From Protoeuglena noctilucae (taxonomy: Eukaryota): a stretch of DNA of 20,000 bases. The position numbers and the translations under genes are program-made. This document shows, in pieces, positions 1-20,000 of this stretch. The first letter of the stretch is position 1. Every line of letters begins with the position of its first letter. The DNA is taken from assembly GCA_958009085.1 (NCBI GenBank), contig OY253671.1, positions 1,603,983-1,623,982 on the forward strand, written 5' to 3'. The notes under the pieces were generated by a model. That model was not told where the DNA came from, searched no databases, and saw only the letters and a list, made by a program, of their open reading frames with translations.

Positions 1-82
1 GCACACAGCGCTGTGCAGCTGGTGTCAGCTCCCATCCAAACATTCGTTTAGTCACGCCGCATCCTCTCTCGCACCCGCGCAG

Positions 83-1249
83 GGCCGTGTCGCAGCTGGC
101 ATGGCTGCAGAAGGAGGGGACGTTCGTGCCCAGGCCCGTCCTCGACTGCGCACGTGAGTCCCGCGGCCGTATGCAACAAGTGGGCGTGTCATGCATACTA
201 CTGTGCACCCAGGCAGTGCCTTTCTGATTACAATGACGACACCACAGATACCCCAGCGACCCACCCATGGCATGACTTGCACGACACTAACCCTTCTTCA
301 CCCATGGATCCACGCACTCATCTATTCTCCTATCATCCCCGCAGTGGTGGCGCTGTCGGATTCGTACGACCTCGAAGGCGCCATCCGCCTCTTTGAGACC
401 ATGGAGCAGTCGTTCGGGCAGGCGCCCTCCACGCAGAGCCACTCCGCCATCATGCGAGGCTGCCTCGTCAACGGCAACCCGGGCGCCGTGCTCTCAAGTG
501 CGTACACACACATGACACATGACACACTCACTTGCAGCATGTGCCCCGGCTCTCGGCTGCCGCACCGCAGACCCTCACTGGCACTCCCTTCCGATGCCTC
601 GCACCGCAGTCGGCGAGGAGATGCAGCGCGCGGGCGTCGACCCGGATCGCCTGGCCCTGGAGGCAGTGGTTCAAGCCCATCTGGCGCGGTCCGAGCTGGA
701 GCTGGCAGCCGAGGGGCTGGACGCGATGCTGGGGAGGCAGATGACGCCCAGCACGCGGCTGCTGACGGCGTTCACCCTCAAAGCCACGCGGCTGGGGGAC
801 GAGGGGGCGCTGCAGGTGCCCAGGGTGCAGCCACGGGCGGGCTGCGGTGCGTGCGCACTCGTGCATGCGATTGACATCCTGCTTCCTTACTGTCCTCCGC
901 AGTGGGTCGCCGGCGTGCTGCAGTTCCTGCAATACTACCCTTCTCAGCTGTCCGCCATCGAGCGGCGCTGGCGGGGGAGCGCGGGCGCCAGGAAGCCCTC
1001 CCTGCTCGGCAAGGTCCGCGAGTTCCTCAAGCACGCGCCGTCCTACCCTGAGGTGAGCGAGATGGCGCTGGTTCCGCGCAGCTGACTCCGATGGAGGGCG
1101 CGACACGGCAGGCCCCGCGTGCGCCGCAGGCCGAGACGTCGTTGATCGGGCGTGGACTCGACGAGGAGGTCAAGCTGATCGCCCGGCACGACGAGAAGGC
1201 CGCTGCGGCTGCTGCGAGCGCCATGGGGGCGGTAGAGAAAGACCGATAG
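83..1249 (+). CDS. Pentatricopeptide-repeat (PPR)-like protein, 3' part (gene begins upstream of the window)
   Basis: Exons 83-153, 345-497, 610-815, 903-1052, 1130-1249 join in phase over GT-AG introns. The spliced product contains ~35-aa helical repeats (…AIRLFETMEQSFGQAPSTQSHSAIMRGCLVNGNPGAVLSIGEEMQRAGVDPDRLALEAVVQAHLARSELELAAEGLDAMLGRQMTPS…) with the PPR-type 'eM...G..Pd' signature. Stop TAG at 1247-1249. Confidence 0.75.
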
Positions 1250-1385
1250 CACCCGCCCGGACAGGGCTAGGTACACCCTCTTCTGACACGCCGGCGTCGA
1301 AAATCGACAAGAGCTGGCGCCCCCGCCCCGCCCCACCCCTCTCTCACTAGCCTACCTGGCGTGGAACCCAGCTCGCGGGGGAAAG

Positions 1386-2392
1386 ATGGCCGAGGAGCAG
1401 CACGATCTCACCTTCGAGAATGCCGACGCCGGGGCTTCTCACACGTTCCCCATGCAGGCGGGCGCCATTAAGAAGGGTGGTCACATCGTCATCAAGGGGC
1501 GCCCCTGCAAGGTGGGCCGGGGGCGACCGCAGGCCGTTGCTCCTCCGCCTGCTGGATCGGTCCGCGGCTCGCGCTGGCCGTCACGGGCCCGATGGAGGCC
1601 CCTCAAGGCTCTCCGGGCGCCACTGCGCGCTGCCCGGCCGCGAGTCCGCCGCGCCCCCCTGCTCGGCCGTCAAGGCGGGCGGGTTGCGCGCACGCGCAGC
1701 ACCGGCCCATTTCGCGAATTTGGCCGCCGGTGCATTCCGCCGGGTCCCCCGCCGGGCCCGCGCGACCCGCGCCGGCCTGGAGGGCGGCAGGATGGGCCCG
1801 GGGCCCCCGCGCCGCCGAGCGAGCCTCCCGGGGTGCGAAGGCGGCGACGGAGCCCTCCCTGGTGCCGCAGGTGGTGGACGTGTCCACCTCCAAGACCGGG
1901 AAGCACGGCCACGCCAAGTGCAACTTCGTGGCGGTCGACATTTTCACCAACAAGAAGTACGAGGACATGTGCCCCTCCTCTCATAACTGCGAGGTGCCCA
2001 CAATCAAGAGGGCGGACTACCTCCTGCTGGACATCTCGGAGGACGGCTTCGTGTCGCTGATGGACGAGGCGACGGGTGCGCCCCTGCCGCGCTGCGCCTG
2101 GCCGCTCGGCCCGCCGAATCTTCCTTCGCTGACCTGTGCCGCGGCTCCGACTCTAGCCATCGGGAGGTGCCGCGAGCGACGCCGTGCTGAGATCCATTCC
2201 CTGGACCCTGCCGCAGGCGACACGCGTGACGACCTGAGCCTGCCCAAGGGCACGGATGAGCTGGACAAGCTGGCGGCGGACCTCAAGGCCGCGTTCGACG
2301 AGGGCAAGGAGCTGCGCGTCTCCGTCACCGCGGCCATGGGCGAGGAGATGATCCAGGCCCTCAAGACGGCCACCGACGTCACGGCGTCCTGA
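1386..2392 (+). CDS. eIF5A: Eukaryotic translation initiation/elongation factor 5A (168 aa)
   Basis: Exons 1386-1511, 1871-2075, 2217-2392 (507 nt). Contains [47 protein letters not shown], including the invariant hypusine motif [12 protein letters not shown]. Confidence 0.97.
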
Positions 2393-2896
2393 GCGCGCGG
2401 CTCGGCTGGCGGCGAGCAGTGCATTGGCCAGGGGATGTCTTCGTGCTGCGGCTCGCGCGTGCTGGACCAGACGGGCTTTGCTGAGAGGCTTGACAGGGAC
2501 GGCACGTCCTCGTGTCTTTGCTTGGTTGGAGGAGTAGAGGGCGTCTCTGCGCTGCGATGCCGCGCCCATCGTGGGGCTCTGGTAGGCTGACACTGGGAGC
2601 CGCCGGGCTTTGAATGATCGTCTTGACGCTCGAGCCTGCGGTTGAGGGCCTGCATCGGCCTCCGTGAACTCGCCCCTGTCCCGGCCGCTCGCCCACGCGA
2701 CGCTGCATGCCCATCATGCGCAAGCTCGTGCCCCTCACGCTTGCAAAGCGCCGAAATGGCTTTACCCTACGCTAGGGTTTCTGCCTGGCGGGCCCAGCGG
2801 GTCTGCGAGGCCGCTCCACCGTCCCCGCAACTTCCATTGCGAAAGGGAGTGGAACACAACCCTTCCTTCCCTTTCTCCTCCGTCATCCCGGCCACC

Positions 2897-4754
<1,858 letters not shown>

Positions 4755-5315
4755 CGCGGCGACGAGGGCGAACGGGGCGGCGTGGCCTCAGCCGACATTG
4801 GTGTGATGCGCAGCGGATTGCGACTGGGGCGGTCGGACCGGGCTTGTGTGCATGTGCCCATAATGCTGCCTTACGTAGCAGTCATCGCTCTCCGCGCTTG
4901 GGTCGCGAGCGGAGAGCCGAGTAGACAATTCGAAAAGTCGGCCCTTGAAACGATTTGAGGGATCCCGGGCGTTTCAGCGCCAGACACCGGCCCTGCGTGC
5001 CCAGGAGACGACGCTGGGGCGGCCGGGCCTCGCAGTGACTGAGAGCGATCATAGTATTCTCGAGCTGCGAGCGTCGTGTGCCTCTCCGAGCCGCAGAAAC
5101 AGCACAGCACACTTCTTTGCCTAGCGTTTGCTCCTGCCACTCCTGGGAGTCGTGTTTCCGCTCACGTTCGTCATCTTCGGCTTTCCATAGGCGCAGGCTG
5201 ATTGTAGTGTGCTTGGCTGGCTCTGGGGATGCCGCGCAGCATTCATTTCACGCGGCAAGGGGTGGCGGGATCTCGCACTGGCCGGGAAACCGGGTTTCGG
5301 CGGTAGCGCGTCGTC

Positions 5316-8300
5316 ATGCTGATACCTTACGGCTTTCCCACTGTCTGGGCCCTCGGGCAGGGGACCGACGGGGCCAGCGCAGGCCAGGATGGGGACCCTG
5401 AGAGTGAGGCCGCGCTCGTTGCGCGCCCATCGCCGAACCGCGCGAGCTATGCGCTCGCCGCGATCCTGCCAGTGAGCTGTCGCATCATCGCTACCGATCC
5501 GCGCCCCGAGACATGCCTGTTAACTTCCAGGCTTTCCAAGGTTCCCACCCCTGCCAGGACTTGTCTTCACCCACCAAGCCCCCCCTTCCCTGCGACACGC
5601 AGAGACGACTGCGCTCAAGGTGCTCTCCACGCCCTCCCTCATGGCCGTGCTCACCTCCCGCGGCCTCGAGGTGTGGTCGGCCGGGCGCGACCGCCACTGC
5701 GTCGCACGGTGGGCCGCTCCCCCGGGGGAGGCCCCCATCGATTTCTGCCTGTGGCCGTCCGCCCCCGCCGCCGCGGTGCTGTGCGCCCCCGACGCCCTGC
5801 ATCTGCTCACATGGAAGGAGACCTGGCAGACGGTGGCGGGGTCTCCGGTCCCATCCGCATCGGTGCAAGTGCGACACGTGGCAAGGGTGCCCGCGAGGGC
5901 AGGCGCCACGCCGGTGATCCTCGCGGGCGGCGCCGTGGGTCTCGTGCAGCCGCGCGGGGCCACCGCCGACCCGGGTGCTGCCCCGGTGGCGCTGGCGGGT
6001 GATGCGGGCGCGGTGGCAGTCGCCTTTGTGGACGGCAGCCTGCTGGCCGTGTCGTGGGCCGGGCGGCCCCTCGGCCTCGCATCCGCCGCGCATTGGGCGG
6101 CCGACGCTCCCCGCGACACCCCCTCTCCAGCTGCGGAGGTGGCGGTGGGGGGAGGGGTTGCTGCGGTGCGCATGCCGGGGCTGGGGGTGGCAGTGTGCGC
6201 GCTCCCATCGCCGGGAATCGCCGGGGTGCCCCCGCCGCCCGGGGATGCGTCGCTGCTCCCCTCCCCCGCCTCCCTGCCCGGGTCGCTGCTGGTGACGGAG
6301 GGGCGGGGACCGTGTGCTTTGGCGTTGGCGGCGGATGGCGACTGGCTGGCCGTGGGGATGGAGAGCGGCACCGTCGAGCTGTTTCAGACACGGGGGGGGA
6401 CGGCAGGGGCGGACAAGTGAGGCTCACTCGTGCCTGCCATTGCGTGCCTGCCCACCCATGTCGCTGCCCATTCGTGCTTGTGCGCAACACGCCCCAACAT
6501 GCATGCTACCCTGTGTCTGTCTCCCCTGCAGCAGTGACCCCCTCCCCTTCGCGTGGCTGCGCCCCTCGGACCTCGGTGACCCCCACCCCGGCGCCGTCAC
6601 AGCCCTGGCATGGTCACCCTGCGCCACCACTCTGGCAGTGGGATACGCATCCGCACCCGTCGCTCTATGGTCTCGCGCCGGCCACCGCCTGGCCTCCCTT
6701 GGCCCCGACACGGCGTGGACGCCCGGCAAGCGCGGCGTGTTGGCCACCGGTGCTCGGTCCATTGCCTTCGCTGCCCACGGCGCATTCCTGGCCGCTGTGG
6801 GGGGCAGTCCCGACGACAGGTGACGATGACGATGACGATGGGGAGGGTAGTTAGTACACAAGAGTGAAAGATGTTGCGGGTGCATATAGCAGTTGACGAT
6901 GACGGTGGGGAGGGTAGTTGGGGCAACGGTGATGGATGCTGCGGATTGATGGCAGTTGGCAGTTGTATCACTCCCCGCATCCCTCACTCCATCTTCGATC
7001 CCTGTTCACTCGACTGCAATGTTATTGCTCACACCTCACGTCATCATCTCTCCACTCTTCTCTCCCCCAGTCACGCGGTGGTGGAGGTGGGGCTGGCGCG
7101 CGCCCCCTCGGGCCTCCACCCGCAGCCGGCGATGGGCCCCGTCGCTGGGGGGAGGAACGCGGACGCAGCGGCGGCGGCACCGGGGGCGGCTGGGCGTCGT
7201 CACTGCGCGGCGATGGTGTACGGGGATGGGGTGCTGCTGGTGGGGGTCGACTCACCGCAGGTGACTTTGACAATGGGGGCGGGGGTGGTTGGGGTACTGG
7301 TGGTTGTAAAGTAGTTGTATGGTTGCTATTTAATCTCAATTGTTCGCATGTTCCATTCACTCTCCATAGCAGTACTAACCAATCTCCCCCTCCCCTCCCC
7401 TGGTCTCTCCCCCAGGGTTCCCTCCCCAGCCACGACCGCATCCACGCGCACGTGATGGCCGTGCCTGCCCCCGAGGCGTACCTCGCCCACTGGCCTCTGC
7501 GCCACGTCGCATGCCGGGGGGACGCGGTGGCCGTCGCGGGGTGCAGGGGGGTGGCAGGTAAATGGGTGGGGGGGTGGCTATGCAGGTGGCTAGCAGGGAC
7601 TGATGAAGCATCTCTGTACTCACCACAACTGCTGTGCTCTCCAACTGCATAGCTGTGCGGTTGCCGCTACGGTCACACCGACTCTGCGACATCACGTCTC
7701 TCCCTCTCTCACCCGCAGTACACTCCCTGCCCTCCTCCCGCTGGCACCTCTGCGGCGATGCTCACCACGAGCGATCTTTTACAACTATTGCCATCGCATG
7801 GGCAGATGACCACCTCGCCCTCCTCACCACCCCACCGCCGCAGCCGGGCACGCCACCCCACGCGCACCTTGTAAGCAGTGACGCCCCGTCTGGGCCCATC
7901 ACCCTGCAGGCGAGAGAGAGGGTGTTGTTACACATGCATGCAACATGACAGCACTGTTGCCACACACCACCATTGCCACCGCCACCACCACCCCATCCAT
8001 GCCCCCCTCTCCCCTCCCCCCCAGGTCTACGCCCACGGCCGCCTCTCCCCCGACACCCTCGCCACCTGGGACCCTCCCCTCCACCGCACCCCCATCGCCC
8101 TCTGTGCCGCACGCACCTACCTCGCCGTCGCCCTCGCCCCATCATCGGACTCACCCCTCACCGTCGAGATCCTCACCCTCACCGACTCCCCATCCCCACC
8201 ACATCTAACACCCCAGCGCCTGGCATCCGTGGACATCGCAGACGCACCCCCTTTACCAATGACCACGGCCCTGCTGCTGAGCGCGCCCCACGCGACGGGG

Positions 8301-11300
8301 CCCGCCCCGCCATGGCTGCCCCCCGCCGGCCCCGGCCACCGCCTGCGCCCCTCGCATCTGGCAATGCTGTCCGGGTCTCAATCGCGCACGCTGTCGGTCG
8401 CCTCTCTGCGCACCGGCCGTGCGGCGCCTGTGGCGGTGAACGTCAACGCGGCGTGGACGCCCGGGGTGGCGGCGCTGGGGCAGAGAGACACGTGAGTGGG
8501 GGCGGTAGAGAGGGAGGAGTGATGAGGGTAGATACGTGAGTGGGGGTGGCAGAGGGGGGGGGTTGTGATCAGGGGGGATGCGTGTGATGGTGCGGCATAG
8601 CTGTGTCGCCATTCTGCTCTGTGTTTGCCACTCATGTCGCCCTCATGTTCACCACCCCCCCCATGTACCCACTCCCTCTCATGTTCACCACTCCCCCTCA
8701 TGTCACCACTCACATGCCACCCTCATATCCCTCCTCACTCACTCACTCACCCTCTCCCCTCCCCCCCAGTCGCTCCTCGTGGCCCCGCCCCGACGCCCGC
8801 GCCCCCTCGGCCGCCCACGCATCGGTGGGGTCGCTGGGATCGATGGGATCGGTCAGTTCTCTCAAACTGGACCTGCACACCGTCAGGGAGGCAGTCGCGT
8901 ACCCACACGGGCCCGGTGAGGGGGGGTGGATGGATGCGATTGGCAGAGACATCACTGATGATCAAGCGCACAGCTGATGACCGTGATGCTGCTGTGGCCA
9001 TGCGCTGCAGTGCGGTGGTGTGCTGTCTGCTGCAGTTGTCATACATTGCGCTGCTGTCGTGCATTGCATTGCATCCATCCACAAAATGTCACCCCCCCCC
9101 CTCCCTCCCCCAGGTCTCCCCCGCCCCCCCCACCCCCTGTCCGGCACCGCGCGTGAGATGGCGTCCATGTCTGACCTGGGCAGGCTGCTCGACAGGGCAG
9201 CACACGTGCACGGGGTGCCCACGGGGGTCACCTCACCCGCCCAGGCGAGAAAGGGTGGGGGTTCATACTGCTGTCGATCTCATTACGATCAACAGCAGCG
9301 CTTGCTGTCTCCAGTGACACTCACTCACTCACTCCCACACTCCCACACTCACCCGCTCACTCACTCAGTCCCTCATTCACACCTCCCCCCCCTTCACTCC
9401 CCCCCAGTCCCGCCCCTCCCTCGACGCCCTCTTCCCCACTCACACTCACACACACAGACACACTCTCACTCACTCTCACCCATTCACAATCCCGTCTTCT
9501 CCCCCCCAGGCCCGCCCTTCCCTGGACGCCCTCTTCCCCCTCTCCCCCTCCCGCGCCGCATCCACCACCGCACTGCTGCCGCCCTGGTGGGTGGTGGGAG
9601 CCGGGGGACTACACTGCGCCCACCCATCGGCATTGACAGCCGTGGATGCAGACGCACCGATGACCACCATGGCTGCGCCACCCAACACAATGGTTGGTGC
9701 TATGACGAGTGGTTCTGGTGTCACGTCTACCGTTGGTGTCACGTCTACTGCTGGTGTCACGCCTATTGCGATGTCTATGGCAACTGCTGGTGTCATGGCA
9801 TCTCCTGACATGGTGGATGCTGCATCTCCGGGTGACGTGCCTGTGGACCAGGATCACGTGACAGTGGGGCTCGACTGGCAGGGGGGGGCGGTGGTCACGA
9901 TGAGGCGAGTGCGCGAGAGGGGGGGGGCGGTAGCGAAGCATATGATGCGAGTGGCTGTATTGGGCACTCGTTGTACTAACCAATCAACCAACAATCGCCT
10001 GTGTCATCGCGATTGCCAGCATAAGCGTCACTCACGCCACCCTCCTCTCATGCGCATGCCATAGTGTATGTGGCACTCACGCCACCCACCTCCCAACACC
10101 GCCTGTCATGCCATTCCCCCCATCTCCCTCCCCTCCCTCACAGCACCGTCTCCACCGTCCACCGTGCCGCATCTGTCTCTCTTTACCCCCCCCGCGACCC
10201 ACTCCTGGCGCCGTGGGCGTCACCCCACGCGCACGTCACGCCACTCCTCCCATTCATGCTGCGGTGAGTCGTTGTGCTATGGCAAATGCTCGAACTTGCT
10301 TTTATATATAGTGTATCTCTCTTTTTTTGTATTAAACGCACTCTCATCGTCAATCCATGACCCCCCCCTCTTCACCCCTTCACACCCACATCCTGACCCT
10401 CAACCCCCCATATATCATCTCCCCCCCCCCCCCCAGTCAGTTGGTGCGCCAGGGCCGCCTCCCCGAGGCAGAGTCCCTGGCACTGCGCCACGCATCGTCC
10501 ACCGACGTGGCACTCTCGCTGGAGAGACTGCTGGCACTGGCACTGCACGCCTGGCACCCCGCCACCCCCAGGCACCGCATGCAGGGGGCAGGCACGCACA
10601 GCCACGGTGAGGGGGATGTGGGTGTAAGGTTGCATGTGGATACCGTTCATGACAGTACTGGTACTATCAGTACCATCATAGAAACGAGTTGCCATGGTAG
10701 ACGTGTGCAGCGTGTCGAGATGCATGTAGTGCTAAGCATGTATTGACAAGACATAATACACGCAACCCCTTCCACCTCCCACTCCCCCCCAGTGCGCCCC
10801 CTCCCCCTCGTGACCCCCGTGCACTCGGTGGCGAGGCCAGACGACAGCCCACCCCCCTCCCCGCCCTCGCCCCTCCCACCGCGGCCGGGCAGCCCCCCCG
10901 CCTTCTCGCATCTCCCTCCCCGCGACGCCCACGCTGTGACTGCTATGGTAACTGATGACGACGACAGCGGGCGTGAGCGTGGCACCCCCTCCCCCCGCCA
11001 CAGCGCCGACGCCGCCAGGGAGTCACCGGGTGAGGGGAGAGTGCGTGTGGTAATTATACAAGCGTGCATGCTCACATGCTGTCACGCGCACCCCCATGTT
11101 CACCATCACATGCAGTGACGCGCAGTCCGCACCCCCTCTGCTCATGTGTCGTCACTGCCCCCACCTCTGCCCTTCCACTCTCAGCCTCTTCCCCCTTCAC
11201 CCCCGACATCTCCCGGCCCCTCAGCCGCCGCTCCCTCCACCGCCTGGCCATGCCATCCCTGTCCCTCTCCCCCGGCACTCCCAGCGGGGACGACGACAAC

Positions 11301-13249
11301 GAATGGGGCACTGCCAGAGACGCGACAGGGGCGGTGAGGAGATGGGGGGGGCATGTGTGATGGATGCAGCTGCGAGCAAGCCCAATGCATGCATTGGGAC
11401 CTGCAATTTAGGCAACCACACACAAGCACGCAATCGGCAGGCGTATGCGCGCACCGCCTCTGCTCTGCTTTGCTCATAACATGCAATCACACATGCCCCA
11501 GTGTAACCGTGATGTCAATCATACCATCGTCACTCTCACCGCCAATGCTCCCCTCTCCCCAATCAACAGGGCCCCGCCCCCACCTCTCACCTCGAAGACG
11601 TCTTGGCCATCCTCAAGCAGTTCCCGCACTTCCCAGAAGTGGTCATCAGGCGAGAGATGGGGTGATGGAACACGGCATGTATTGCACCCATCTCCACTCA
11701 CTCCCACTCGCACTCAATATCACCTCTCACCCATCGTCCCCCCCTCACCCCCAGCGTGGCGCGCAAGTGCGACCACTCCCTCTGGCCCCCCCTCTTCCGC
11801 CTCGCCGGTCCCCCCTCCTTCCTCGCCGAAGAGGTCCTCGCCAGGGGTAACCTGCGCACAGCAGCGTCCGCACTCGTCGTGGTGGGGGAGGCCGAGGGGG
11901 GGGACGCGGCCGCGTCGCTGGCCAGGCTGGTGACGGAGCAGGCGTTGCACGCGGCAGACTACGATCTGTGCGCGGAGCTGCTGCGGTTTGCGCTTCTGAG
12001 GGGGACGGGAGCAGGGCCGCCCTCGCACCCCCCCTCGCCCACCCTGCGCGCGAGCGGGGGCGGCAGCGCGCCCGCATCCCCCGCACTGCGCCGCAACGGG
12101 CACAGCGGCGATGCGGCGAAGGCGCAGGGAACGCAGCCGCGCGCGTCGCAGGGGTGGTGGCTGCTGTCGTGGCTGATGGGGGGCGATGCGACACGCGGGG
12201 AGGGGGGTGGTGGTGGTGGCAGTAATGGTGCCAATGCAAACGCGGGTGCAGTGTCCAGTCGCCTGTCCCGCAACAGTCTGCCCCGCTCGTCGGGTCTGCT
12301 GGACCCGCATGCGACGTTGGACGCGGTGCTGTCATCCATGGCGGTGCCTGAGCCGCCCCCCCCCGAGGGCACACCTGCCGCGTGGCTGTGGTCGCTGTGC
12401 GGGGAGGTGTGTCAGCACGCAGTGGCATTGCTGGACATGGGCATGCTGTCGCAGCTGGCGGCCATGGGCAGGGCACTGGCACCCGCGGGGGCATCGCTGT
12501 CAACAGTGCTGGGGGCGGGGGGGGCGGCGCGGTGGGCGGCCGCTGAAGGGGCGATGGCGGAGCGGGGCGTGGCGGGCGCACAGGCGTGGGGACTCGAGGC
12601 GTCGCTGCTGGCGGCCGTGGCGGGGCCGGACGAGGGGGAGGGGGAAAGTGAGGGAGCGCTAGTGAGAGTGGCGATGAACGTGGTATCACGACTGCCATGT
12701 CACGCGCCGTGTGATGTCTCGTTGCTCACCCATGCTATAACCACCTCCCCTGCAGCGCCCCTCCCCCCCCGCCCGCTCTCCACCAAGACCCGTGCTGCCA
12801 TGGCCGTGCACGCGCTGTCCCTGTGCCGCGACGAGTTCACCGCGGACCCCGGGGACGCGGCCCGCTCCTCTATTGATGCTCTGTGCGATGCTTTGGGGTG
12901 CCATGGGGCGTGGGCGTGGGTGGCTGCGCTGGGACTCGTGGCGGCGTCCAAGGAAGCCATCGCTGAGGTGAGGCACAGGCATTGCATACATTGCATGGCA
13001 TGGCACGGGACAGTGATGCATGGGGCAGCAAGCGGATGTGATGAGGGGCGGGGTTGGGTGACATGAGGCGCACTGCTGCTGACGGCTGCTCTTCATGCAT
13101 GCATGCCGTTCTCTCTCCCGCAGGTAGCCGCCAAGGACCATGCTTTGTGGGAGCACTTCTCCCGCCAGGTGCGCACGGACGTGCAGCTGGCCGCCTTCTG
13201 GGGGACAGTTGATGCGGCGTGGGAGGAGGGGCTGGGGAGAAGGGCGTAG
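5316..13249 (+). CDS. RIC1: RIC1 homolog (Rab6/Ypt6 GEF complex subunit; WD40-like N-terminus plus RIC1 domain), about 1612 aa
   Basis: Exons 5316-5403, 5603-6416, 6532-6819, 7071-7260, 7416-7557, 7719-7909, 8025-8491, 8770-8915, 9114-9244, 9510-9904, 10144-10263, 10437-10606, 10793-11029, 11185-11333, 11570-11649, 11755-12647, 12756-12967, 13124-13249 (4839 nt, in phase). RIC1-like motifs recognised from memory: MLIPYGFP start, YLAHWPLRHVA..DAVAVAG, RWHLCGD, MLRQLVRQG..LSLERLL, FPHFPEVVISVARKCDHSLWPPLFRLAG..LRTAA. Some internal boundaries are uncertain (7871 vs 7910 donor; 11116 vs 11185 acceptor). Confidence 0.88.
9318..9481 (+). repeat. Intronic (CACT)n/(CA)n low-complexity tract
   Basis: CACTCACTCACTCACTCCCACAC…CACTCACACTCACACACACAGACACACTCTCACTCACTCTC within intron 9245-9509. 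Confidence 0.8.
9717..9770 (+). repeat. 18-bp coding minisatellite in RIC1 exon 10 (GVTST[V/A] units)
   Basis: TGGTGTCACGTCTACCGT / TGGTGTCACGTCTACTGC / TGGTGTCACGCCTATTGC, with a further partial unit near 9784-9797. Confidence 0.85.
11650..11754 (+). other. GC-AG intron in RIC1
   Basis: CAG|GCGAGA donor, phase 2, restores FPEVVIS-VARK. Confidence 0.85.
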
Positions 13250-13641
13250 GGATGACAGGGACTGTTAGAGACTGTGTTTATAGATCGGTGTGCCTTGCCT
13301 ACCTGCTGCTGCCTGCGGGGCTTGATGGAATGAAACGAGACAACTTGCGCTGGCACTTGCGCCCCGCACTGGCACGCGAGGCAGCGACGAATGGGAGCAA
13401 GGGGCCGATCAGTGCGATCAATACCACGACATCACCGACACCGGATGCTGATAGGGCACGACCGCGCGCCCCTTTCTGCAATCACGCTACGGTTGCCACG
13501 CCCGGGCCGCATCCGGCGCCCGGGAGAGTGAAACCAGGCGGTTGCCGGGTGAAGATTGAAGCAAAGGCAGCGGTGCAGATATCGGTGTGACTTTACAAGC
13601 CCGGGTGGGCCGCAGGCGGGGTTGGCCCTAGGCGGAGCAGA

Positions 13642-16600
13642 ATGAGCCAGGCTCCTGCCGCGCCGGCGCGGCCCCTGGCGCAGGGGGCCACGCAGATGGA
13701 GAAGGAGAAGAGCATTCCAGCCACTCCGACGCCCACGGGATCCTCCGTCCCCGCCGATGCGTCCGCGGCCCCTCTTCCCACGATGTGGTCCGAGGTGGCC
13801 CCCGAGGAGGTCCAGCAGGCGAGCGGGGATAGCCGGGCAGTGCAAATGCATTGGGTATTGAGCAACAGCGCTGCGGAAGTTGAGAGCGGACGCTCTGCGC
13901 GATCTGGGAGTCCCGTTTGTTCTGCGCTGCGTTTGTATTCGACTCCCCGCGCGCATCCCCCCTCGCGGACTGGCGCTGCATGGTCAATCTCGGTCTGCTT
14001 ACGGATGATGTGCATCGGGGCAGAGTGAGGTGGCCATTTGCGCTCGCAGGGTGCGCTGATGGTGGCCATGGCGCTGACCCCGGGCCGAGGCATCCAGATG
14101 GCAGGGCGTGCGGCAGCGGGGCCCGGCAAGGGCGCGGACTCGGACGCGAGCATCGTGCCGGTGGCGGTGCTGGCGGCCGCGGAGACCTCTGACCCCCTGG
14201 GCATGGGTCGGCTGGACCCCGCCACCCTGCGGCTGGTGGAGCCCCGGGCGGCGAGGCCCGCGGCGCTGCGGGCGGGGGCCCCTGCGCGCGCGGCGGCTGC
14301 GGACGCGGCGGCGGTGCTGCCCACGAGCAAGTCCTTCGACCCCGACGCGTACCTGGGCACGGTGCATGGGGCGACCCCTCGAGTGCGACTGGAGGCGGGG
14401 ATGGCGACGCTGTCAGAGGAGCTGTCAGAGCGGACGGCGCAGCTGCGTGCGCTGGTGCGTGACAACTTCGCCCGGTTCATGTCCTGCAAGGGCGCCATCG
14501 ACGGCATCTACGGCCGCCTGAGGGTCAAGGACTCTGGGGGCGTGGCATCCACGCGCGCACTGCTAGACACGGTGAGGGGGGGAAGGGGAGCAGTGCTGGA
14601 TGTGCGGGTAGACATGATGAGTGCGGGATGCTGTGCGACTGTGTCTGGGGAGAGGCGAGCGGGATCGGGGCGCACGAGTAATGGTGTGACCGGACGGGTC
14701 GCTCCCGTGTGCAATCACGGCAGTCTGGGGCAGGCGTGGTCGCCATGCACACCCCTTCTTTCTCCCGTCTCATCCGCAGATATCCCAGGCCGAGCAGTCT
14801 GCCCGCAAGGCCCTCGACCCACTCCTGGAGCGGCAGGAGCGCACCGAGCGCCTGCGGGCGTCCATGGCGGCCCTGCGCAAGCACTCGGCGGCCGTGTTCC
14901 TGCCGTCGAGGATGCTCGAGAGGGCGGGCAGGGGGGACTTCGCGGGTGCTCTGGAGGACTTTCGCGGGTGCAGGCACCTGCTGGCGCCGCCCCAGCCGGG
15001 CGCCACGGGGGGGGCGGTGTGGGCGGGGCTGGTGCGGGAGGCGAGGGGCGCGCTGCGGCAGGTCGGGCACATGGCGCAGGCGCACCTCTGCGCCAGCGCG
15101 GGGGACGCGGGGGAGGTGGCGCGCGCCCTGGTGGCACTGCGCGGCATCGCCCAGGAGCTGGGGCCCGAGGCGGTGCGGCCACCCAAGTGAGGGACACGAG
15201 AGTTGGTGGAGTGCTTGACTTAGATTGTGTTAATATCTGTCTACGAGTATGTTCAATAGTGTCGCACCTTGTCGCCCTTTTGTCGCAGGCGGCAGGCGGA
15301 GGGGGAGGGTGGGGGTGCGCCTCCCCTGGTGCCGCTGGACCCGGAGCCGGGGCGGCTGCTGGTGCGCACGATATGCGCGAGGGGGGTGCGGGAGGTGCAG
15401 AAGACGCACGGAAAGCTGCAGAGGTGTGAGGGGCGCAATGGAGGGGGGGTGGGGTACCACATCACATGTCATATGCAGTTGGGATGCCGCGCATGGCAAC
15501 CACCCTGCTACCCTGACCCCCCCGCGCACACACCCGCAGGGCTTTGAAGCGACTGGAGGGCGAGGGCGCCCCCCGCCGCGCCCGCACCACGGCGCTGGTC
15601 CGCGCGGCCGTGCGCGTCTCCCAGGCGACCACCGACTGCGTGCGGCTGGCGTGGCGGCTGGCCAATACCCCCGCGGTGCTCGAGGCGGCCGCCGCGTTCC
15701 CCGTCTTCGGGCCGAGGGGGGCCGCCCGCCACGCCGCCAAGCGCAGCATCGGCTCCGATGCCGACCTGGCGGGGGCGGGGGCTGGAGCGGGGGATGCAGG
15801 GCCCTCGCGGCTGGGCCCCGGGGGCCGCGGCGGTCGCGGCGCCGTGGCCGGCACCCCCGACCGCGACCGCCGCGCCATGCACCGGATGTCATCGGTGGCT
15901 GCCCAGTCCCTTAGCCGCGCCAGGTCCAGCGTGGCGTCGTTGCACGCCGACCCCCTGGGCACCGAGGCGGGCACCGCGCACCTCATCGACGAGTTCTCAA
16001 GAGTCGCGGGGGACATCCTCGAGGTGAGGATGCGATGGGCAGGGGGGTGCAGATGGGCAGCATGTGACTGTGCTTGTCCTTGCGATGCTGAGGAGTGCAG
16101 ATGGGTAGCTTGATGAGCTATCCATGAAATGCTGCGGAACGCATGCGCAGTGTCCGACTCTTCGCCAAATCTGTGACATTCTGTGACATTCTGTGACATT
16201 CGCAGCGGGTGGTGCGTCTCTCCACCGAGGCCACCGCCGAGGCAGGGGGCGACGACGGCACGGTGGGTGACATGGCACCCGTGGCGTCACTGGTGCGCGC
16301 GCTGGGGGCAGCCAGGAGGCAGCTGCTGGCCACGGGGGCGGCAGGCGGGACGGACACGAGCAGGCGAGACACAACGCGGGGCTCACACGGCTGTATGATG
16401 CAGCTAGTACTACTTTCGACAGTCAACCACACCGCCACGCACGTCACTGAGGAAACACATTAGTGCCCAACCAACCCCCCTTCCCCCTCCCCGCAGCAGC
16501 ACCTCCCCCCCCTCGCCCGTGGCCCCCGTCTCCGCCGAGGCCGTGGATGCCGTGGATGCCCTGCTGCGGAGACTGGTCGAGGCGTCGGCGTCCGCGGCCG

Positions 16601-18094
16601 CCCGTCGCCTATCCACCGCCGTGGATGCCGCGCTGGCAGAGCACCCCGGGGCGTGCGCGGCTGCGCTGGCAGAGTCGGTGGACGGCCCCTCCGCCCGCGC
16701 CCTCCTCGCCCTCCTGCAGCCGGCGCCCGGCCACGAGGCCGCCTCCGCCCTGGTCGTGCAGCTGGAGGGGGCGGCCACCCCGGACGGCCCCGGCGCGCCC
16801 GACCCGGACCTGGAGCGCACCGCCCTGGTCGCGTGGCTGAGGGGGGCACTGCGCGCCGCCGTGTGCTCGGTGGAGAGCGCCGCGCGCGACGCCGACGCCG
16901 CCGGCACCGGTCTGCTCTTCGACGCGACCGCCCTCGTCGACGCCGCCTGGGGGGCCGTCGCCCGCGCCGCCGCATTCCTGGAGCTCTGCTGCTCCAAGGG
17001 GGCGGCGCCGCCGGGGCCGGATGGGGAGCGTGTGGCCGCCCCTGCACCCGGCGCACCCCCGGTCGGATCCCCCGAGTGGGCACTCGCCTCCCTCAGGTGC
17101 GAAGACGAGCAACGATATCACAGATCGCAACGCCACGCGTCGCGAATTCCCTTTATAAGACACCACCCCCTCGCGTGCCTGTGCCTATGCAGGTCCGTGT
17201 CGGGTCTGGAGGCTCTCTGCGCGTGGCTGGACTCTCGCCTGGCGCCCCTGCTCATGCACAGCCCGGGCCGCGCCGCCCCCGTGCCCCCTGCCCCCGCCAC
17301 GTGCCTGTCCGCCCTCTCCGCCGCCCGCGCCGCCGTCATGGCGCACTTCTCCTCCTCGGCCGCCTCGCGCGTGCGGGCGCTGGTGCGTGAGTGGGTGGCC
17401 AGCGTGGCGCGCGTCCCCGTGCTCAGCGTCGACCTGCTGGACGACCCGGACGGCGACGAGGCCGCGGGGGTGCGCGCATGGGGGGTGCCGGCTGGGGCCA
17501 GGGGCGAGTGCGCGCGCGTGGTCGACTACCTCTGCCGCGTGGCGGGGGACCTGTCCCGGAGCGCCCCGGACCAGCGCCTGGCGGTGCTGGGGGCGCTCGT
17601 GCGGGGGGCGCTGGGCGAGGCGGGGCGCGCGGCCGAGGCGCTGCTGCAGGGAACCCTGGAGGCCCCGGCCCCGGGGGGCGGCCTCGCGCCCCTGTCGCTG
17701 GCCTGGCGCGTGCAGCGCCGCGTGAGCGTGTGCGCCTACTGCCAGCTGCGCCTGGAGCTGGAGGTCCTCGACGAGGCCACCGCCGCATTCCGCACCCCGG
17801 ACACCGAGGCGGCCCTCTTCGCGGCACTCGAGGCGCTCGCGGAGGCGGCCGTCGTCACGGGTGAGGGGCGGGGAGAGGGGGGTCTGCCGGGCGGCGCTGG
17901 CGACTGTTGTGTACTTACCCATTTCCCCCATGTGACGCGCAGAAGAGGACCAAGCGCTGCTGGGGCTGGACGCCGAGGCGGGCGTGGCGGCGGGCCCATT
18001 GGCGGAGGACGCGTACGGGGCCGTGGCCGCGCCCCTGCTGCCCGCGGCGCTCGAAAGGATGGCCCTGGCCACGCGGTGCCTGGACGCGGGGTGA
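13642..18094 (+). CDS. SEC5: Exocyst complex component SEC5/EXOC2, about 1100 aa
   Basis: Exons 13642-13818, 14050-14571, 14780-15186, 15289-15423, 15540-16023, 16206-16363, 16497-17096, 17193-17860, 17943-18094 (3303 nt, in phase). Plant-Sec5-like motifs DPLGMGRLD, FDPDAYLGTVH, LRALVRDNFARFMSCKGAID, ALDPLLERQERTERLR, FLPSRM, AYCQLRLELE. The start codon is less certain. Confidence 0.88.
16171..16200 (+). repeat. Perfect tandem repeat (CTGTGACATT)x3 at an intron 3' end
   Basis: Three identical 10-mers immediately before the CGCAG acceptor at 16201-16205. Confidence 0.95.
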
Positions 18095-18419
18095 CGCCAG
18101 TGATGATGGCGGCAGAGGATAGTGCTATTGAATGCGTGTTGTCAAGCGTGCATGCGGGAGGCACAGCGGCGTGCGTTGGTTGCTGGGTGCGTGCGACTTG
18201 GCTGCGGCTGGCGTGCTGTCGGAAGCGTTGAAGAGGGTGGCCGATGTGACGGGGAGTAACATTTGATGCTGCGTATGAATCGATTCAGTTGCAAATGCTC
18301 GCAGCGCGCGGAGCGGGGCGTGTGACAGTGTGCATATTCGAGTCCCTGGATTGGGACCCTGCGCCATCGGAAGTCAACGACTTGGCAAGCCCATCGCCGG
18401 GGGCGCGTCTGCCGTACAG

Positions 18420-18551
18420 GCCGCGCTGGTCGTGCAGGGCCCAGGCGCAGGGACCGTCGTGGCCTACGACGACGCGCGGGGGTCATTCACGGTGATAGTC
18501 ACGGCTGATGCGCCGGACGAGGTGGTCTATGTGTCGGTGGCCTCTGACTGA
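18420..18551 (+). pseudogene. Possible coding-exon remnant interrupted by an element tail
   Basis: After a TACAG acceptor-like site, GC3-rich codons give AALVVQGPGAGTVVAYDDARGSFTVIVTADAPDEVVYVSVASD. The stop TGA is supplied by the CTGACTGA tail of the adjacent element. Confidence 0.3.
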
Positions 18552-18716
18552 CTCTCTTCACAAGGCTCACAGCTAAGATCGCGGATCTACCTCTTGCCAC
18601 TATCGCCCGGGGCCCTCGAGCAGTGGCTTCAGCCGCTTTGGCAGTGCCAGGGCCAGCAACTACCAACGCCAGGGAAGCTTGCATCAGCGGTGTAGAGTAC
18701 ATCACCACCGCCTAGC
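18544..18716 (-). other. Predicted structured RNA element, copy 1
   Basis: Several stems covary with copy 2. G-U wobbles work only on the minus strand. Confidence 0.65.
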
Positions 18717-18885
18717 CACAAAGAAAAAAGGCGTGAGACATGAAGCCGTCACGCCGCTCAAGGGGGCACCCCCTTGGGAATGGAGCGCCCCGGGGGGCGG
18801 AGAGAGACAGCCCAGGAGGGCGGCAACACTCAGAACGAGCGGAGCAACACCCACCGGGGAGGCCCGGCGGGGGAGGAAGGCGCCC
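18544..18885 (-). mobile_element. Putative 5'-truncated non-LTR retroelement fragment 1 (3' UTR only, (AGTC)n tail)
   Basis: 18544-18716 is a diverged homolog of 18886-19073 (identical block AGCCGCTTTGGCAG at 18631 and 18989; shared CTACCAAC, GTGTAG.GTACATC, GCCTAGC). It starts with CTGACTGACT on +. The retroelement identity is inferred from architecture. Confidence 0.55.
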
Positions 18886-19073
18886 CTGACTGACTGACTC
18901 GCTTCAAAGGGCACACAGCTTAGGCCTCAGGCCTATTGCTCGCCAGTTCTAGCCTATAACTAGGGGTCCGGTCCCTGGACCTGGCTTAAGCCGCTTTGGC
19001 AGCACAAGGGCCTATGCTACCAACACCCAAGAAGTTCGCGTCGGCTGTGTAGTGTACATCGGCACAGCCTAGC
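18886..19073 (-). other. Predicted structured RNA element, copy 2
   Basis: Same stems as copy 1 plus an extra hairpin CUAGUU-AUA-GGCUAG. Confidence 0.65.
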
Positions 19074-19392
19074 TTAGAGGTGGAACCCGAGGAAAAAACC
19101 ACCCGAGGGTGAGGAGGGCAAGCCCCCCTGTGCCGGCGAAGGCGCATGCAAGAAGCAAGCGCAAGACCCCCAGATACGAGGGCGGGTGCCCGCTAGGCGG
19201 GCTCAAAGGGCTGCAGCAAGGCAGCGGGGGCAGCTGCAAGACAGCGGGTAGGCGGCGCGGCGGCTGCCACTCCCCCCGACTCGCAGGGCCGGGCTGGGGT
19301 GGCGGGCTCAGTGGCCCACCGCTTGAGAGCCCTGGTGCATGGGGAGGTGCCCCTGGGGCGCCGCCCTCTGCACCCTGGGCCCGGCCGCCCCA

Positions 19393-19746
19393 TCATGGCG
19401 GCGCTCGGGCACGAAGGCCGATGGGGAAGGGGAGTGGGCGCCCCACGCCCGGCGCGGGCACACGGTCCATGCTGAACCACTGGCCCGCCTGCTGGATCTC
19501 TTGGACTACAGCCTGACGCTGGGAGAAGAAGGCGCCCCGCACCGTCGTGGCGATGGCGCGGCGCACCCGAGTGAGCACCTCGCCCGTGCCCGGGGGCCGG
19601 GCGTGGGGCAGCCGGCGCAGGGTGGTGTGGTACAGGACCATCGTGCCCCATGCCGCCATGGCCCAGGCGGAGGCGACGATGAGCCACAGGGTCGGCGGCC
19701 AGTTGGGCGGCGTCTGCAGGCCGAGCACGTGGCCGGCCGTGAGCTG
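19393..19746 (-). pseudogene. Truncated ORF (117 aa), possibly the C-terminus of an L1/Tx1-type ORF2
   Basis: QLTAGHVLGLQTPPNWPPTLWLIVASAWAMAAWGTMVLYHTTLRR… has GC3-rich codons and no in-frame ATG at its start. It loosely resembles the hydrophobic 'lt..hvllg..P...lW.lv...a.W' segment after the zinc knuckle of L1-clade ORF2. No RT motifs are present. Confidence 0.4.
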
Positions 19747-19755
19747 TTAAGATGG

Positions 19756-19834
19756 TTAGGGTAGGGTAAGGTAAGGGTAAGGGTTAGGGTAAGGCATTTT
19801 AGGGGTAGGTTTAGGTTTTTAGGGTTAGGTTAGG
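19756..19834 (+). repeat. Degenerate proximal telomeric repeats
   Basis: TTAGGG, TAGGG, TAAGG, TAAGGG, TTTTAGGGG, TTTAGG, TTTTTAGGG and TTAGG variants. Confidence 0.9.
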
Positions 19835-20000
19835 TTAGGGTTAGGGTTAGGGTTAGGGTTAGGGTTAGGGTAGGGTTAGGGTTAGGGTTAGGGTTAGGGT
19901 TAGGGTTAGGGTTAGGGTTAGGGTTAGGGTTAGGGTTAGGGTTAGGGTTAGGGTTAGGGTTAGGGTTAGGGTTAGGGTTAGGGTAGGGTTAGGGTTAGGG
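19835..20000 (+). repeat. Telomere (TTAGGG)n
   Basis: Near-perfect TTAGGG array running to the end of the sequence, G-strand 5'->3' outward, with two TAGGG units near 19871 and 19984. Confidence 0.97.

Follow-up and report, generated by a model that had tools for sequence, protein, structure and literature searches.

Here we describe a structured RNA module that occurs in two copies near the end of contig OY253671.1 of Protoeuglena noctilucae (assembly GCA_958009085.1), within a stretch of 20,000 nucleotides (nt; contig positions 1,603,983 to 1,623,982) referred to below as the window and numbered from its own first letter. The module is a structured 3′-terminal RNA that matches no catalogued family, and it is most probably the tail signal of a retroposon. 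Its RNA is read from the minus strand, its secondary structure is under selection, and it makes up the final 172 nt ahead of the poly(A), that is, the 3′ terminus of a polyadenylated RNA. An earlier note, drawn from the letters of the sequence, had placed two copies on the minus strand in this part of the window, which we now refine to 18545–18716 (copy 1) and 18887–19073 (copy 2); new beyond that note are the chromosome end, the polyadenylated RNA, and a GC-rich hairpin followed by a run of six U residues (hairpin-U6) before each copy.

Fold of the module and evidence for selection

Copy 1 (172 nt, minus strand) is built from hairpin A with its 13-nt loop, the helices CUUC/GAAG and GGC/GCC, hairpin B (loop GGCCCU), helix E, hairpin C (loop AGGGCCC) and hairpin D, and it closes with the tail G(AGTC)2A, the poly(A) site lying at 18545/18546. 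Copy 2 (187 nt, minus strand) has the same helices in a seven-helix fold, together with an extra 15-nt hairpin inside stem C, a loop C that reads AGGGACC and an (AGTC)3 tail. The two copies are 83% identical, and 47 of 171 aligned columns differ. The stems listed in the earlier note, namely A (7 base pairs, bp), B (7 + 4 bp), the outer and inner parts of C, D, and CUUC/GAAG, are paired in both copies; in its version of copy-2 stem C the stems are indeed present, but the two cannot share the G that lies between GCCAG and GGUCC. Absent from that list were an 8-bp helix (GCGGCUGA/UUAGCUGU) enclosing hairpins C and D, the 3-bp GGC/GCC helix beneath CUUC/GAAG, and the additional hairpin found in copy 2 only.

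Pair counting was restricted to the 41 pairs that MAFFT aligned unambiguously between the two full module sequences, and all 82 cells proved to be paired: both sides had changed in 7 pairs, one side in 3, and no pair was broken. When the 3′ partners were slid by 1 to 3 columns in either direction, 31–44% of the cells paired and double changes fell to 0. With the same 47 differences scattered at random, 7 or more double changes were reached in 1 of 20,000 trials, and none of the 20,000 was without a broken pair, the minimum being 5. Stem C, aligned by hand, contributes 3 further double changes, and RNAalifold, given no structure, predicts the same helices (46 pairs, 8 double changes). The proposal of a selected structure, made originally from stems that change in sequence yet stay paired, is thus upheld for the secondary structure by 41 of 41 pairs, the controls, the null model and RNAalifold. 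The strand is settled by the seven G-U pairs in each copy, as had been argued before; these would be A-C mismatches if read on the opposite strand, and the folding energy of the minus strand is 4–10 kcal/mol better than that of the plus strand. In the RNA contigs described below, seven listed variants (a subset of 9 + 9 differences) fall inside the module and all are compatible with the fold: four are unpaired, one turns G·U into A-U, one turns U·G into C-G, and one is an A to C change in loop C.

Could the module be a neutral tandem subtelomeric repeat, its stems due to chance or to features of the DNA itself? GC-rich DNA folds readily, and the folding-energy z-scores (+0.93 and −1.08) are not significant and ordinary for the composition, so that the case for the fold rests on compensatory change, read from two full sequences only. 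That change, however, makes a neutral repeat hardly credible: with 7 double changes and 0 of 41 pairs broken, the real copies are cleaner than any of the 20,000 null trials. The G-U pairs are, moreover, specific to one strand, RNA is made and polyadenylated, and the flanks of the copies are unrelated, so this is not a simple tandem repeat.

As the earlier note had observed, loop B is complementary to loop C, over 6 bp in copy 1 (GGCCCU against AGGGCCC; duplex −11.6 kcal/mol) and with one A breaking the match in copy 2 (−7.0 kcal/mol). A relative of copy 2 carries AGGGCCC instead of AGGGACC and so matches loop B again over the full 6 bp. By a rough estimate, some 6-bp match between two loops of such sizes would be expected by chance in about 1 case in 100. 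At ~11 bp each, arms B and C are similarly long and stand one 8-bp helix apart, which makes a contact geometrically plausible. The kissing contact is putative, as both loops are conserved and provide no covariation. Both also contain the palindrome GGCC, through which they could pair between molecules.

That the family is unrecognised, as stated previously, agrees with the database searches. Rfam gave no match at gathering score in the 20-kb window and, at E ≤ 10 over an 851-nt region, three weak unrelated matches only. A covariance model of the module built in this analysis (R1) finds the two copies only in the window; its next match, at 5210–5261 (10.6 bits), bears no likeness to the module by eye. 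In JGI metagenome contigs, the hairpin-B pattern gave no matches and a looser loop-A/stem-B pattern gave 3, which by eye are due to chance; R1 reaches 6.6 bits over 15 nt in one of these (L003) and leaves the other two (L001 and L002) unmatched. The pattern scan of IMG/VR gave no matches, and the single one in GTDB genomes (52 nt of a Rhodoferax metagenome-assembled genome, 15.8 bits) is not taken as a homologue because the pattern itself had picked it out. No account of the element emerged from literature searches. Whichever reading of its function holds, R1 provides a direct handle for a genome-wide census.

Several known kinds of element were considered and rejected. A telomerase RNA would require a template complementary to TTAGGG, and none common to both copies was seen by eye. 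Reading the plus strand as a Helitron 3′ end (hairpin plus CTAG) leaves the 40-odd covarying pairs, the G-U pairs and the poly(A) end unexplained, and an introner or a miniature inverted-repeat transposable element is at odds with the absence of terminal inverted repeats. For a Fanzor/TnpB guide RNA there is no such open reading frame (ORF), and the RNA ends at the scaffold without a guide. A terminal exon following a U-rich tract and CUAG was set aside as the contigs are colinear over that boundary and no joint is reported. As for a hammerhead, CUGAUG occurs in copy 1 only. In a test for the head of a short interspersed nuclear element (SINE) transcribed by RNA polymerase III, there was no match to tRNA, 7SL or 5S RNA, no A or B box stood out by eye, and ARAGORN reported no tRNA-like genes.

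Transcripts, boundaries and the sequence upstream of the module

RNA contigs from four metatranscriptome runs were compared over 17800–19740. In two of the four (X9 and X10, from one study), a contig covering 18545–18879/18881 shows, on the plus strand, 21 T ahead of 18545. As the genome has no A run at 18545, this 21-nt tail is non-templated poly(A) on a minus-strand RNA, which ends at the CA of the (AGUC)n tail of the module, and it is these contigs that identify the module as the 3′ terminus of a polyadenylated RNA. The stretch 18545–18879/18881 is covered in X9, X10 and X12; past 18879, the contigs of X9 and X12 enter a second, slightly different copy of 18785–18874 and then sequence foreign to the window. 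The tailed RNA therefore comes from a longer version of the unit, the one in the window being cut at its 5′ side. In X10 and X12 no contig crosses copy 2, and uncovered parts prove nothing. As a separate observation from the X9 and X12 contigs, the 95 nt of 18785–18879 are tandemly duplicated in other copy-1 units (10 differences, 2 gaps), the contigs showing a joint from 18879 to 18785 and loose ends behind 18874.

The homology between the two copies starts abruptly at GCTAGG and ends at the (AGTC)n tail. Upstream, the flanks reach 65% identity with long gaps and are therefore unrelated, and those downstream are unrelated as well; the module is the only part common to both units. The number of AGTC repeats varies (~2 in copy 1, 3 in copy 2). 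No A run follows the tail in the DNA despite polyadenylation of the RNA, which implies priming at the tail if the module was copied from RNA. The same 3′ border is met in other contexts. A called protein of 56 amino acids (aa; P0003) on an ENA contig of 1,066,337 nt matches the copy-1 frame letter for letter and leaves the window sequence after the module, ending VAC*, and thus represents an identical copy-1 module with a different flank. It is the sole protein match to the 70-aa frame spanning copy 1, and it stands for a second locus rather than for sequence variation. The loose end of a contig from X13, reverse-complemented and read in the copy-1 frame, shows the same three codons and stop as P0003. 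A relative of copy 2 in X9 tracks 18887–19740 with 9 differences and departs exactly at 18887, and a divergent copy shows 9 differences over 108 nt and has a CTGACTGACT tail and a flank of its own. The shared 3′ terminus recurs in this way at no fewer than four homology breaks at the last base of the RNA.

Both units lie on the minus strand, head to tail, with their 3′ ends toward the centromere. The upstream part of the proximal unit (18717–18886, minus strand) is non-coding, with flat GC over codon positions, and the unit as a whole is a non-coding 3′ fragment ending in the module; it is cut at ~18879–18886, where it abuts the tail of copy 2, and runs further elsewhere. In the distal unit, an ORF of 117 codons plus stop (19393–19746, minus strand) has a GC content at third codon positions (GC3) of 0.90; over 19396–19746 the values at positions 1, 2 and 3 are 0.74, 0.59 and 0.90. 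The real genes of the window give 0.93 and 0.84 (eIF5A) and 0.89 (Sec5-like) at the third position, and the stretches beside both modules are flat (0.63–0.71). Between its stop codon and the module runs a 3′ untranslated stretch (19074–19392, minus strand) whose ORF107 and ORF196 have no coding signature. The full form of the ORF, seen in 10 variants of 95–100% identity on short ENA and Logan contigs, encodes 122 aa starting with MGPSE, and in the window these five codons are replaced by telomere-like repeats. A codon-biased ORF followed by a 3′ untranslated region (3′ UTR) of ~500 nt that includes the module makes the distal unit a small gene decapitated by the chromosome end. The N-terminal half of the protein is hydrophobic. 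No Pfam family was matched in the 3 frames searched upstream of copy 2, and among 1.84 billion representatives the 117-aa ORF had two matches, its own near-identical cluster representative (P0001) and a 47-aa fragment; an Atlas look-up with the 122-aa protein returned only borderline (0.90) and uninformative matches to fragments of bacterial membrane proteins.

Each module is preceded by a GC hairpin and a U6 run on the minus strand. Before copy 1 these occupy 18724–18755 (hairpin 18730–18755, U6 18724–18729) and end 7 nt upstream of the module; before copy 2, where the site is terminator-like, they occupy 19093–19112 (hairpin 19099–19112, U6 19093–19098) and end 19 nt upstream. The two hairpins have no sequence homology to each other. 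In the 19,740 non-telomeric nt, T runs of at least 5 occur twice on the minus strand, both just upstream of the modules, and once on the plus strand, and the chance of two T runs falling within 30 nt upstream of the two modules is estimated at about 5 in a million. This placement suggests a functional 3′ region with the order hairpin, U6, short linker, module, (AGUC)n and poly(A). Some specific roles for the U tract were considered and dropped. Pairing of U6 with the poly(A) tail is predicted for copy 1, with a gain of 1 kcal/mol, and not for copy 2, and pairing of the tract with the purine-rich GAAGAGAG is likewise confined to copy 1. A triple-helix clamp on poly(A), of the kind formed by an element for nuclear expression from a stem whose internal loop is U-rich in both strands, was rejected on the single U6 run outside the module and on tail pairing that is marginal and limited to copy 1. 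In the enterovirus oriR, hairpins before the poly(A) are joined by loop-loop kissing and the first A residues of the tail can be paired by a stretch of U; the likeness is one of analogy only, since that viral RNA is replicated by an RNA-dependent RNA polymerase and shares no sequence similarity with the module.

The T runs and the non-homologous hairpins before both modules imply a conserved function of the whole 3′ region, and they thereby lend weight to a different account, in which the module acts in cis within the 3′ UTRs of a small family of subtelomeric genes. Together with hairpin-U6 it would direct or protect the 3′ end of an mRNA, fixing the cleavage site, holding the first A residues against U6 and slowing decay, while its copies would stem from ordinary duplication of DNA and from recombination of chromosome ends with one another. 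The exact coincidence of the module end with the used CA/poly(A) site fits this account, as do the sole two minus-strand T runs of at least 5, the codon-biased distal ORF with its 10 near-identical variants, and the failure to find a reverse transcriptase. DNA duplication, however, leaves unexplained the four homology breaks at the last base of the RNA and the 5′-cut fragment abutting the tail of the other unit, and the pairing of U6 with poly(A) that it invokes is predicted in copy 1 only and for 1 kcal/mol. On balance we regard a 3′ UTR element as somewhat unlikely.

The same upstream structures could be read in another way, with hairpin-U6 ending an upstream RNA and the module forming a free-standing small non-coding RNA of ~175 nt, either cut from polyadenylated transcripts, with GCUAGG as the processing site, or made from its own promoter. 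Homology boundaries that are sharp at both the 5′ and the 3′ side, a hairpin and U run just upstream of both copies, and loops A, B and C conserved as they are in protein-bound small RNAs are consistent with this, and contig word depth is 20–69 over 18545–18879 against 4–6 in the neighbouring gene, although such depths cannot rank genes. Nevertheless, the contigs are colinear over the 5′ boundary (18545–18881 and 18887–19740), without a pile-up of ends, which contigs cannot show in any case; nothing tRNA-like and no known small RNA is matched; and the T6 runs, at −8 to −13 and −20 to −25, provide no shared upstream promoter motif at a fixed spacing. A small RNA of this kind appears improbable.

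The earlier note had also suggested a new ribozyme; by self-cleavage, it might free the unit RNAs from co-transcripts of the head-to-tail array. The compact multi-helix fold with its possible loop-loop contact and the position at unit junctions are what such a ribozyme might show, and ribozymes are known at the ends of elements without long terminal repeats (PMC4035085, PMC8501958). The suggestion nevertheless fared poorly, and we consider it very unlikely: with a cut-off as loose as E ≤ 10 no ribozyme family is matched, the RNA ends in non-templated poly(A) at CA as left by the normal cleavage pathway, and contigs cross the 5′ boundary uncut.

A proposed retroposon tail and the systems it resembles

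Taken together, the homology breaks at the 3′ end, the 5′-cut fragment, the variable tail and the lack of an A run argue for copying through RNA with the tail as its starting point. We therefore favour, tentatively and with a little less than even confidence, a reading in which the module is the shared 3′ tail of retroposed units and is recognised by a reverse transcriptase in trans. The units would spread through RNA by retroposition, the module serving as the cis signal that the trans-acting enzyme recognises, and copying would begin within (AGUC)n rather than in the poly(A), as it does in the R2 3′ UTR and in stringent long interspersed nuclear element (LINE) and SINE tails. Loops A, B and C would owe their conservation to protein or tertiary contacts, the proximal unit would be a 5′-truncated copy, and the distal unit would have lost its first five codons to the chromosome end. 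The idea of a recognition element for reverse transcriptase, one of several in the earlier note, is accordingly the best single guess with regard to the poly(A) site, the boundaries, the (AGTC)n repeat and the head-to-tail layout, although no reverse transcriptase was found.

In stringent LINE and SINE tails, a short tandem repeat of variable length follows the structured element. The module likewise has an extreme 3′ position, a stem structure with compensatory changes and a variable tandem tail without templated poly(A); its 3′ end is common to at least four contexts, and one unit is 5′-cut. In the stringent families, too, the tail is common to otherwise unrelated units, copies are 5′-truncated and the DNA copies have no A run. 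Stringent LINEs need a specific structured 3′ tail, common to their partner SINEs (PMC4176376), and the tails of eel UnaL2 and zebrafish ZfL2, of CR1/L2 type, are structured and placed at the extreme 3′ end like the module (PMC4176376, PMC1636434). They consist, however, of one stem-loop of ~30–60 nt, whereas here seven helices span 172–187 nt, with a possible loop-loop contact, and an upstream hairpin-U6 is added. A further difference is that no LINE bearing both a reverse transcriptase and the module was seen, and that one unit carries a family-less 122-aa ORF.

Another parallel is R2, whose reverse transcriptase, according to PMC12222951, binds a pseudoknotted element of the 3′ UTR to start target-primed reverse transcription; the same source describes a multi-helix 3′-end RNA of ~200 nt with a fold that is conserved over sequence, as in the module. 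R2, in contrast, is autonomous and inserts in 28S rDNA, it has no likeness to the module in sequence or at the level of Rfam, and the corresponding contact is putative here.

The layout of the units recalls telomeric retrotransposon arrays, in which units stand head to tail with 3′ ends centromere-ward and 5′ truncation at the end, as set out in PMC5537684. The arrays named there (Drosophila HeT-A/TART/TAHRE, Giardia GilM/GilT and the Penelope-like Athena) share this direction and terminal truncation with the minus-strand units of the window, where the telomere replaces the first five codons of the distal ORF; HeT-A, like the units here, is without a reverse transcriptase of its own (PMC5537684). 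Unlike those arrays, the window has two units only, ordinary TTAGGG telomeres and no gag or reverse transcriptase domains, and an identical module occurs at least once in a different genomic setting, which may or may not be near a telomere; unlike Athena, the units have no telomere repeats at their 3′ junctions. A stronger form of the argument, which we think rather doubtful, would make the units HeT-A-like terminal retroposons without a reverse transcriptase, one of them encoding the 122-aa protein, copied onto eroded or broken chromosome ends in a marine alga whose telomeres are ordinary TTAGGG repeats, and recognised through a new 175-nt module with kissing loops and a three-way junction, together with hairpin-U6, by an enzyme in trans; this could be of the LINE or Penelope type and conceivably telomerase itself.

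A number of points weigh against a retroposon tail. Chief among them, searches of the window and the units turned up no reverse transcriptase, endonuclease or gag-like domain, although a partner element may lie elsewhere in the genome. The distal ORF has a host-like codon bias (GC3 0.90), and the distal unit could be a host gene with the module in its 3′ UTR. Neither target-site duplications, at the two junctions read, nor telomere repeats, at the unit junctions, were seen, and two head-to-tail units would show this orientation by chance in about 1 of 4 cases. The full module sequences are two in number. As for the RNA, a sister locus rather than this window may have given rise to the poly(A)-tailed contigs, and the libraries may contain DNA, those tailed contigs excepted.

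Structured 3′ tails are the means by which many retrotransposon enzymes choose their template, and few have been described outside animals, mostly single hairpins. Should the module indeed be a signal for a reverse transcriptase, it would point to a retroposition system, active but so far unrecognised, in the compact genome of an alga, and perhaps to chromosome ends being repaired or extended through RNA alongside telomerase. As a 3′-end or stability element, it would instead be an unusual structured mRNA 3′ signal for a very GC-rich genome nearly devoid of T runs.

Chromosome end and neighbouring sequence

The telomere repeats, the intron-split genes and the high GC content (68% overall) identify the window as the right-hand chromosome end of a GC-rich, intron-bearing eukaryote. 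Its sequence is found in 13 listed sequencing runs from 4 studies, comprising DNA runs of one cultured organism, marine metagenomes and 5 marine metatranscriptomes. The telomere (19747–20000, plus strand), whose G-rich strand reads 5′ to 3′ outward, consists of degenerate TTAGGG-like repeats from ~19756 to ~19830 and then of regular (TTAGGG)n to the window end. The degenerate part, of ~80 nt, includes the variants TAAGG, TAGGG, TTTAGG and TTTTTAGGG and may be an old junction or the result of long-read error.

Two genes lie on the plus strand. The eIF5A gene (1386–2392; GC3 0.84–0.93) is split by an intron of ~350 nt, with exons in two frames. The Atlas cluster closest to its protein is rich in Streptophyta, and telomeres of TTAGGG type in a genome of 63% GC are reported for the pelagophyte Pelagomonas (PMC9481584), neither of which is decisive for the lineage. 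A long Sec5-like gene (14038–18231; GC3 0.89) has a weak match, below the cut-off, to the Pfam family Sec5 of the exocyst (E 0.14) and contains an 82-nt GT..AG intron (17860–17941) confirmed by an RNA contig. Contigs trace its 3′ end to ~18437, so that this gene converges on the poly(A) site of the module at 18545.

Within 1–19740 there are three A/T homopolymer runs of at least 5 nt; two are the T6 runs before the modules, and the third is a T7 at 10322–10328 on the plus strand. The stretch 7800–11750 is strongly C-skewed, with a GC skew down to −0.44 and (CACT)n and (CA)n microsatellites. It contains a recurring C-rich motif ending in CCCCCCCAG, of which one pair (9397–9437 and 9499–9539) is 93% alike and relatives lie near 8003, 8748, 9092, 10112 and 10780; these motifs could represent intron 3′ ends that recur, or else a short dispersed element. 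In the same stretch, an 18-nt tandem repeat resembling TGGTGTCACGTCTAC is present in about three copies at 9698–9765.

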